A DNA stretch of 63,400 bases, counting the filler, from Collodictyon triciliatum (taxonomy: Eukaryota): assembly GCA_043381765.1 (NCBI GenBank). It is 5 parts of 5 records of this genome, joined end to end, with 100 filler letters (N's around TTAATTAATTAA, not from the genome) between each part and the next. Parts side by side here need not be neighbours in the genome. Positions count along the whole stretch, not along the records: positions 24,163 to 39,482 come from JBHJMP010000724.1; 4 more parts are not named here. The stretch is one strand, 5' to 3'. Shown in pieces: positions 29,800 to 30,701 of this stretch. The first letter of the stretch is position 1; each line of letters begins with the position of its first letter. Position numbers and translations under genes: made by a program. The notes beneath the pieces are model-generated. The model saw only the letters and a list, made by a program, of their open reading frames with translations. It was not told the DNA's origin and searched no databases.

Positions 29800-30701
29800 T
29801 CAAAATGTAATCAAAAGACCCAAGGATATATCTTTATAGACGAACTTTCCGAAGAGCAGTTATCTTTATTAGACAGAAAAAAGAAAGTTGGAGTGGATGC
29901 AGACAAGTTTAATTTGGTTTACATGGTGGATGAGGCAGGTAGGAAATTACGTTACACGGCACACAAAAGAAGACATGATAGCAAATCTCTCAAAAATCAC
30001 AAAATGCTCTTGCGCGAGAAAAAAGAAAAGTACAATTCTTCAGGGATATGTATGGCAACAGATATACAAAGTGTTGTTTCTTTTGGTCACATGACTTTTG
30101 AAGAGAATCAGCAGTTTGAGACATCAAGAGTATCTTTAATCGAATTAGAGACAGGACTGAGTAAACATAATTCATGCACGGTCAATTATGAAAAAATTCG
30201 AAAATATGTATCCATGAAATCAATATACCAGATAGAATTATCCAGATTTTATGAACAAGTAACTTTTCGAAAGATGAGATGGAGACAGCATGTTAATACA
30301 AAAAGAAGTGAACAGTTGTTTATGGACCGAATCGAAAAGACATTTGGCAAGGATGTTGTACTGGCGTATGGAGACTGGAGCAGGATATGTCAGATGAAAA
30401 TATTTTTTTGGCAATAATCGGAAGATGGTTACGAAAAATACTCTCCGAACGTTTTGAAACAGTTAGTGTAGATGAATTTAGAACCTCCAAGATGTGCTGC
30501 AGCTGCGAAAAAGAACTGGAATATATGCGACTGAAAGGGAATTCAGAAGAAATGTATAGATGTCTCATATGTAAAGAGTGCAATCGCTCAGAAAGCAAAC
30601 AATCTGTATTCTTGACAAGGGACTTAAATATCGCTAATAATTTTCTCAACAAAGTTCTTTTAACCCTTCAAAATATGCATACACCTTTCTTTAAAAAATA
30701 G
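29800..30701 (+). pseudogene. Fanzor (eukaryotic TnpB-like RNA-guided nuclease, Fanzor1-type motifs), 5'-truncated and frameshifted
   Basis: Overlapping ORFs 29755-30417 and 30387-30701 give FIDELSEEQL..KVGVDADK (RuvC-I D at 29896), LRYT..RR, ETGLSKHNS, FYEQ..RKMRW, FGKDVVLAYGDWS, VDEFRTSKMCCSC (E at 30474), CKEC zinc ribbon and RDLN (RuvC-III D at 30621). The frame break lies in AAAATATTTTTTT at 30397-30409. Confidence 0.88.

Follow-up and report, generated by a model that had tools for sequence, protein, structure and literature searches.

A probable 5'-truncated Fanzor1 pseudogene fragment between host genes of Collodictyon triciliatum

Does an intergenic segment of the Collodictyon triciliatum genome encode an RNA-guided nuclease, is it still capable of acting as one, and from what kind of element did it come? 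The segment lies in a stretch of 63,400 nucleotides, filler included, assembled from five records of GenBank assembly GCA_043381765.1 (the window below; all positions count along it), in the part taken from record JBHJMP010000724.1. The original prediction had placed at 29800-30701 a decayed copy of a Fanzor element derived from a transposon or a giant virus. Our analysis assigns the surviving half of the gene to the Fanzor1 family, and positions ~29764-30740 (the relic below) are very likely a non-functional, 5'-truncated Fanzor1 pseudogene fragment.

The relic is carried by two open reading frames (ORFs) on the + strand. Measured from stop to stop, ORF1 occupies 29710-30417 (235 codons, codon starts at 1 mod 3) and is opened by an ATG at 29755, and ORF2 occupies 30312-30701 (129 codons, codon starts at 0 mod 3); the two lie in different frames and share 106 bases. 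The motifs that had been reported for the pair, GVD, GDWS, DEFRTS, CCxC/CxxC and RDLN, were all located in that order and at the predicted place. The predicted range proved slightly short, since in tblastn and protein alignments the Fanzor1-like stretch begins at ~29764-29797 (29764 with protein P0024, 29797 with P0022) and ends at 30740, past the TAG at 30699-30701 (the alignments of the tail end at 30713 with P0001, 30737 with P0155 and 30740 with P0002). The parts of the relic are the following, P0002 being a full-length relative used for residue and column numbering throughout:

29764-30399, + strand: Fanzor1-derived segment A, from the end of WED through RuvC-I, the helical insertion and GDWS to the K of QMK (30397-30399); codon starts at 1 mod 3; P0002 residues ~336-530
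29890-29904, + strand: GVDAD, RuvC-I motif, in ORF1
30370-30381, + strand: GDWS, at the canonical RuvC-II place, in ORF1
30400-30410, + strand: frame break, 11 bases (ATATTTTTTTG) against three codons in intact relatives
30411-30698, + strand: Fanzor1-derived segment B, with the alternative glutamate, zinc ribbon and RuvC-III; codon starts at 0 mod 3; P0002 residues ~534-627
30471-30488, + strand: DEFRTS, with the alternative RuvC-II glutamate, in ORF2
30495-30506, + strand: CCSC, first half of the C4 zinc ribbon, in ORF2
30570-30581, + strand: CKEC, second half of the C4 zinc ribbon, in ORF2
30618-30629, + strand: RDLN, RuvC-III motif, in ORF2
30699-30740, + strand: TAG stop and tail, with ~13 codons past the TAG still like the C-terminal tail of the relatives

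We assessed the family membership of the relic by a combination of profile, sequence and structure comparisons. A profile of 622 positions, A1, was built from 30 aligned full-length relatives and run against the six-frame translation of the window, 2000 pieces in all. ORF1 was matched with an expectation value (E) of 3.1e-57 over profile positions 341-511 and ORF2 with E 6e-26 over positions 516-606, two collinear matches that together cover positions 341-606; of the other pieces, the best (18737-19156, E 0.0047) consists of a His-Ile repeat of low complexity. The match of the window to the Fanzor family is far beyond chance. Among solved structures, the same profile recognized SpuFz1 (8GKH) with E 4.1e-98 over positions 4-615, PpFz1 of Parasitella with E 2e-97 and GtFz1 of Guillardia with E 7.5e-76, and the remaining matched chains, TranC, Cas12m and 9j09 (deposited only as 'Transposase', E 0.31), scored 0.002 or weaker. 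ORF1 alone matched the SpuFz1 sequence with E 3.5e-4 at low direct identity. The AlphaFold model of the ORF1 piece, made with the relatives as alignment, had a mean predicted local distance difference test score (pLDDT) of 80.6 and a predicted template-modelling score (pTM) of 0.68. In a Foldseek search this model returned six PDB chains at E 0.001 or below, all of them Fanzor1, as were all of the top seven; the best was 8gkh_P (SpuFz1; E 4.9e-6, template-modelling score 0.55). The first match outside Fanzor1 had E 0.043; Cas12f scored no better than E 0.12, Fanzor2 (9b0l) had E 0.37 and ISDra2 TnpB 1.5. Profile and structure comparison against TnpB, Fanzor and Cas12f, proposed as a check for the frame-corrected protein and made here with the pieces, therefore sharpens the predicted Fanzor to Fanzor1, the best family both by profile and by the ORF1 model, and the fragment is Fanzor1-derived and not a piece of Fanzor2, TnpB or Cas12f.

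Intact relatives are numerous. A phmmer search of 1.84 billion representative proteins with the ORF1 piece found 959 proteins at E 1e-3 or below, 206 of them at E 1e-10 or below, mostly 400-900 residues long. The C-terminal piece found four proteins among 44 candidates, two of them full length (P0002, 648 residues, 63% identity; P0004, 639 residues, 52%), and over segment B the relic is 63-64% identical to P0001 and P0002. In tblastn, residues 336-532 of P0002 aligned to 29812-30405 with 63.6% identity, and residues 511-643 aligned up to 30740 with 52% identity. Pfam PF07282 was matched by 24 of the 30 A1 members. P0002 and P0004 also carry a precomputed domain tag, PF26935, which may be a recently added Fanzor-specific family.

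The catalytic layout of the relic is that of its family. Across the 30-member alignment the columns D364, E555 and D604 are invariantly acidic, and G521 and W523 stand where a canonical TnpB has its RuvC-II glutamate. The D of GVDAD aligns to D364, the G of GDWS to G521, and the E of DEFRTS to E555, which lies 34 residues downstream of G521 in P0002; CCSC, CKEC and RDLN align to C562, C565, C587, C590 and R603-D604. The relic keeps all three catalytic acids and all four cysteines. The DPG motif, whose proline (P365) is kept by all 30 members, has become DAD. The alignment thus bears out what had been read from the motifs, namely a TnpB/Fanzor layout of RuvC plus zinc ribbon, a rearranged site whose glutamate is in DEFRTS and whose canonical RuvC-II position holds Gly, three retained acidic residues and a drifted DPG. 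A Gly or Pro at the canonical Glu, with an alternative Glu downstream, is the rearranged RuvC described for Fanzors (PMC10530073; also PMC10711439), for which DPG, the alternative Glu and a TDG motif in WED are given as signatures (PMC10711439); an older description of the Fanzor motif, D...[TS][TS]..C4..RD, also lists a G and an E as conserved (PMC3627910).

Against this conserved core stand several lesions. The surviving part corresponds to the C-terminal ~300 of ~650 codons. Searches of the whole 63 kb window found nothing for P0002 residues 1-335 (tblastn with P0001-P0004) and no real match on either strand for A1 positions 1-340, which comprise REC/WED with its TDG motif. The runs of N nearest to the relic are at 24063-24162 and 32540-32639, and the missing 5' part is therefore not hidden by a gap. 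The piece at 18737-19156, considered as the missing N-terminal half, was rejected as low-complexity repeat. The second lesion is the frameshift. The 11 bases of ATATTTTTTTG separate the K codon of QMK (30397-30399) from the codon aligned to P534 (30411), where P0001-P0005 have three residues (HFM, HFV or QFM) and the family consensus is QMKxxxPT; two bases are in excess, and the old frame ends at a TAA at 30415-30417. An intron in place of the frameshift was rejected, as 11 nucleotides against the nine expected leave no room for one. Third, the TAG at 30699-30701, a probable nonsense change as judged from the alignments, replaces a Gln of P0001, P0002 and P0155, and similarity continues beyond it to 30740. 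Finally, the covered region contains 28 columns with a conservation of 90% or more, and six of them are altered in the relic (P365A, Q387K, E391D, F463I, P534A and G539W). Among the 30 A1 members the mean number of such deviations is 1.0, with three or fewer in 28 of the 30 and a maximum of seven, a comparison that flatters the members somewhat, the columns having been defined from the same 30; P0002 deviates in none of the 28, nor in a wider column set. The terminal branch of the relic in the tree described below measures 0.55, about seven times those of P0002 (0.075) and P0001 (0.079). Both the loss of the N-terminal REC/WED part and the homopolymer frameshift, which had been placed at 30397-30409 and was found as two extra nucleotides in a T run at 30400-30410, agree with the original prediction. 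With REC/WED gone, the frame broken and a stop in the tail, the relic would be unable to act as an RNA-guided nuclease.

Is the frameshift real? Short, broken-looking relatives of the relic in public data bear on this question. Five of them resemble it closely (P0008, 83% identity over 71 residues; P0023, 72% over 85; P0024, 64% over 83; P0041, 66% over 64; P0188, 65% over 112), and three more are distant (P0005, P0009 and P0012, 51-52% identity). All lie on public contigs of 500-770 nucleotides, and a difference of 17-35% from the window places these sequences at other loci or in other genomes. One frame suffices to align P0023 to 30214-30468 (72%), across both the break and the TAA of the relic, and intact P0002 contains nothing that corresponds to residues 66-84 of P0023. 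Residues 1-36 of P0188 follow the third frame of the relic (30290 onward) and then switch at the same junction; residues 37-136 follow the Fanzor frame, and only these match P0002. Because other short proteins break frame at the same spot, the frameshift is probably real and old, and the frame lesion probably predates the divergence of the relic, P0023 and P0188. On these alignments the relic belongs with a few other copies in public sequences that are damaged in a similar way, and at least two of those lose the frame where the relic does.

These relatives also bear on the choice between a real lesion and an artefact of sequencing or assembly. If the break were a homopolymer error, the locus could encode a domesticated or minimal host protein of ~300 residues, with RuvC and zinc ribbon. 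The break does fall in an A/T homopolymer stretch, the ATG at 29755 opens ORF1, the three catalytic acids and four Cys are kept, and there is no in-frame stop in 296 codons where three to five would be expected under the simulation given below. However, two proteins 65-72% identical to the relic, hence from other loci, shift frame at the same junction, and the excess is two bases instead of the usual one; a sequencing or assembly error is probably not the cause. A domesticated protein, in turn, is hard to reconcile with the alteration of the invariant DPG proline and of five other highly conserved positions, with the absence of the part responsible for binding the guide RNA and the DNA target, with a terminal branch seven times as long as in the intact sisters, and with a TAG at the Gln of the relatives. 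Taking error and domestication together, we consider this explanation very improbable, and a decayed Fanzor1 copy remains the preferred reading.

The openness of the frames was assessed by simulating neutral substitution from the 296 in-frame codons of the relic itself. The 65-77% amino acid identity between copies corresponds to 0.06-0.10 substitutions per site and lineage in the simulation, a rate that should give 3-5 new stops per copy in 296 codons and would leave a copy without any at a probability of ~1-4%, on the assumption that the relic, P0023 and P0188 diverged neutrally at equal rates; the relic has none. It may have decayed later or more slowly than P0023 and P0188, breaks in the T run may be recurrent, or some constraint may have acted. 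Later or slower decay of the copy in the window fits the observation that the ORFs of the relic-like short copies (74-136 residues, on contigs of 500-629 nucleotides) are much shorter than their contigs.

The same features raise the further possibility that the truncated unit has itself been maintained. Because the 5' end, the Pro-to-Ala change and the T-run break recur, and no stop interrupts the 296 codons, the fragment might be a propagating non-autonomous element or a retained, perhaps slippage-expressed module, in a lineage that may hold an active Fanzor1. Five short copies (P0008, P0023, P0024, P0041 and P0188) are 64-83% identical to the relic, two of them lose the frame where the relic does, the Pro-to-Ala change in DPG is found in P0024 and P0012 as well (as DAG), P0024 resembles the relic upstream of the Fanzor-homologous part as well, from 29764, and the frames are more open than expected. 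Yet the relic and P0188 are shifted by different offsets, contrary to a conserved recoding signal, and the damage at conserved residues is peculiar to each copy (GDW reads ENW in P0023, RTS reads RPS in P0188, and P0005 has DKW and DECKTS). Moreover, the ORFs of the copies fall far short of their contigs, and no ends, inverted repeats or target duplications can be defined. A propagating element or retained module, with an active Fanzor1 possibly still in the lineage, is in our judgement highly doubtful, and a truncated, frame-broken unit that spreads as such or is conserved in place, possibly with expression by slippage on the T run, seems barely credible. We therefore return to a dead copy that has been decaying in place.

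The origin of that copy was approached through its relatives in giant viruses. A scan of IMG/VR with a seven-sequence alignment matched 533 stretches, of which 265 encode relatives; the best 80 were kept. These 80 loci are 37-47% identical to P0002, many are on contigs that carry the label of giant-virus metagenome-assembled genomes (MAGs), and all 80 have intact ORFs (526-710 codons from stop to stop, profile E 5e-210 or better). Several giant-virus MAG names recur across loci, which suggests multiple copies. A metagenome scan with P0002 as query gave only one distant locus (L001, 21% identity). No locus came from a viral scan in which P0002 was the only query, nor from two scans of prokaryote genome contigs, for which P0002 and P0022 were used. 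In a quick tree of 110 rows and 261 kept columns, in which several long branches call for caution at the deeper nodes, the relic groups with P0001 and P0002 (Shimodaira-Hasegawa-like approximate likelihood ratio test, SH-aLRT, 90) and then with P0005 (99). The sister of this clade (SH-aLRT 93) unites the viral loci L002-L004 and L006 with P0003, P0004, P0006 and P0007, which supplies the phylogeny with giant-virus Fanzors that had been called for.

Comparison of L002 with L003 delimits a mobile unit of 3.3 kb at L002 4637-7952, and corresponding units lie at L003 4628-7949 and L004 4632-7920. The DNA of L002 and L003 is 74% identical exactly over the element and shows no identity beyond it. 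The L002 element ends in perfect inverted repeats of 32 nucleotides starting TTTACACCC. It encodes a transposase of 346 residues on the - strand (Pfam DDE_3, E 1.3e-13; HTH_28, E 2.9e-5) and, on the + strand, a Fanzor1 ORF of 634 residues that stops 16 nucleotides before the right repeat. A homologue of the transposase was found in 33 of 81 related loci. The pairing of Fanzor1 with a DDE_3 transposase agrees with the published association of Fanzor1 with Tc/mariner elements, large algal viruses included (PMC3627910). A TA beside each end of these elements would fit a target duplication of the mariner type.

The right ends of these viral elements have features of their own. In 68 of the 80 viral loci (for example L002:7823-7952) the last ~80 nucleotides after the Fanzor stop are strongly conserved and finish in GGTGTAAA; in L002 and L003 the ORF extends into the conserved block. 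In the RNAalifold consensus the right terminus is paired with a sub-terminal TTTTACA (six pairs), and one of the pairs shows a UA/CG exchange in 4 of 59 sequences. The conserved right end would probably be a guide-RNA scaffold that runs into the inverted repeat.

The frequency of Fanzor1 in giant-virus contigs (265 loci), together with the viral copies in the sister clade, raises the question of whether the relic is host DNA at all or whether it reflects a chimeric join with giant-virus or other foreign DNA, or a large endogenous giant-virus insertion. The upstream host gene ends in the following exon:

28927-29079, + strand: last exon of the upstream WD40-repeat gene (Pfam WD40, E 1e-11)

There is no run of N in 24163-32539, so that this exon and the relic share one gap-free block, 0.7 kb apart, and the exon establishes the physical linkage of the relic to host DNA. 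Downstream, ORFs on the - strand at 30938-31351 and 31093-31866 matched no Pfam family; judged from the ORF table, the former resembles the 3'-terminal part of a convergent gene. Other genes in the window are cellular (PP2C, RIO1, CDC45, SAPS-like and UPF1-like helicase), and neither a viral nor a transposon family turned up among the 30 window ORFs scanned. GC content is 35.0% in the relic (34.5% at third codon positions), matching the 36.6% of the window. Even the closest viral copy shares no more than 44-47% identity with P0002, the nearest intact relative of the relic. The surroundings are thus those of a cellular eukaryotic chromosome and not of a viral contig or a large viral insertion, and a foreign origin of the whole segment is exceedingly improbable. 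Between the WD40 stop and the relic, 29350-29650 is richer in GC (the flank 29080-29799 has 43% against 36.6%) and contains open frames of 153 codons on the - strand, for which no Pfam match was found; it could be an untranslated region, a small gene, or a replacement of the 5' part of the element.

Several results weigh against reading the relic as a decayed Fanzor1 copy carried in by a mobile element. ORF2 alone gave no significant match to PDB sequences, and the general models scored the relic pieces below their cut-offs (E 0.001 and 19.6 bits against a cut-off of 26.3 for Pfam Cas12f1-like_TNB; E 6.6e-4 and 19 bits against one of 100 for NCBIfam 'RNA-guided endonuclease TnpB'). The deficit of stops described above belongs here, as does the fact that the probable shared ancestry of the frame lesion is read from protein alignments only. 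As to the carrier, tblastn of the L002 transposase against the window gave a best E of 4.9; within 27000-33000 only A/T-rich low-complexity pairs appeared when terminal inverted repeats were sought; and an nhmmer profile of 59 distinct right ends, drawn from the 68 viral loci with the end motif, found none near the relic, its best match in the window having E 0.96 at 52505. A Helitron is an alternative carrier, since the published 5'-truncated Fanzor1 copies are Helitron-borne (PMC3627910). Because no transposon hallmark survives in the window, the type of the carrier transposon can only be inferred. Of the predicted decayed copy of transposon or giant-virus derivation, the decay stands, and the derivation is plausible from the sister clade, with no hallmark of it in the window. 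A resemblance of 30700-30812 to the viral right end, noted by eye, was dropped when the profile gave nothing there, and the RNA fold of 30600-30830 is not unusual (z-score -0.40).

The history that we propose for the relic is as follows. Its ancestor would have resided in a DNA transposon of the cut-and-paste type. A Tc1/mariner-like element that encodes a DDE_3 transposase, as in the giant-virus contigs, is the likeliest carrier, because the sister clade and the nearest relatives with known context are mariner-like. The element would have been moved by its own transposase, and the ancestral nuclease, guided by RNA from the right end of the element, would have cut DNA and so favoured the persistence of the element. 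The copy in the window would have inserted where two convergent host genes face each other with their 3' ends, and would have decayed from then on, presumably under neutrality. As far as its sequence allows a judgement, the relic itself has no supportable function and the copy is dead.

The relic testifies to a past invasion of the host eukaryote by a Fanzor1 element, whose intact relatives include P0002 and many giant-virus-borne copies. By itself it matters little, its kind having been described and the copy being unable to work. Its use is as a pointer for a search of the whole assembly for intact Fanzor1 copies and as a small data point on gene flow among giant viruses, transposons and hosts.

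Two further features of the window, apart from the relic and its flanks, were annotated:

8928-11690, + strand: UPF1/MOV10-like superfamily 1 helicase ORF, 921 codons, single exon
32884-32955, + strand: transfer RNA gene (Rfam RF00005, 46 bits), the sole Rfam match in the window at gathering thresholds

The best relative of the helicase among 5.8 billion proteins, a EukProt transcriptome protein, is only 32% identical, and the host lineage is therefore poorly sampled in public protein sets. The window is also dense in microsatellites (32 Tandem Repeats Finder rows with a score of at least 150, for example at 5392-5497, 34501-34713 and 46674-47264), with units such as TTGT, AACA, CATA and ATT and with T/A runs of ~100. 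Most of the 16 runs of N (23-133 N each) directly adjoin microsatellite arrays, so that the assembly gaps appear to be repeat-driven.

How does the relic compare with known systems? Fanzor1 forms the eukaryotic branch of TnpB/Cas12, a family of transposon-borne, RNA-guided DNA endonucleases of RuvC type. Fanzor1 proteins of ~650 residues bind an RNA from the 3' end of their gene and the right end of the element, recognize a short motif adjacent to the target, pair the guide with DNA, and cut by a single RuvC site made of the RuvC-I D, the relocated E and the RuvC-III D, as described in PMC10432273, PMC10530073 and PMC10711439. Fanzor1 genes together with decayed or 5'-truncated copies are reported from protists, fungi, algae and large DNA viruses (PMC3627910, PMC10432273, PMC10530073). 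No paper devoted to Fanzor pseudogenes was found by title or abstract, and the supplementary tables of the surveys may list the species or the family. Fanzor1 in protists and giant viruses, its rearranged site, its carriers and its truncated copies are already in print, and the relic is one more dead copy.

The solved SpuFz1 (8GKH), PpFz1 and GtFz1 agree with the surviving half of the relic in family, fold and the order D...G(D/N)W...E-x-x-T-S...C4...RD. In contrast to them, the relic lacks the REC/WED half (positions 1-340), is frameshifted, has DAD for DPG, and is without a recognizable guide-RNA region or element ends. Its closest intact relative is P0002 (from environmental sequence sets), which is collinear with it, is its sister in the tree and shares an insertion of ~34 residues after RuvC-I, and which differs in being full length with its conserved columns intact. 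ISDra2 TnpB, Cas12f and Fanzor2 have the RuvC and zinc-ribbon core in common with the relic, with far weaker matches than Fanzor1, and canonical TnpB keeps the RuvC-II Glu where the family of the relic has Gly. The mariner-type Fanzor1 copies of viruses, among them PGv-1 of Phaeocystis globosa virus (PMC3627910) and the L002 unit, belong to the same radiation as the relic; unlike it, they are intact and come with 32-nucleotide inverted repeats and a DDE_3 transposase, none of which is present in the window. The Helitron2-borne CRe-1, CRe-2 and CRe-3 of Chlamydomonas, as described in PMC3627910, show the same loss of the 5' part and occur in multiple fragmentary copies, whereas the nearest relatives of the relic with known context are mariner-like and not Helitron-borne, and the window showed no Helitron feature, although no search was aimed at one.

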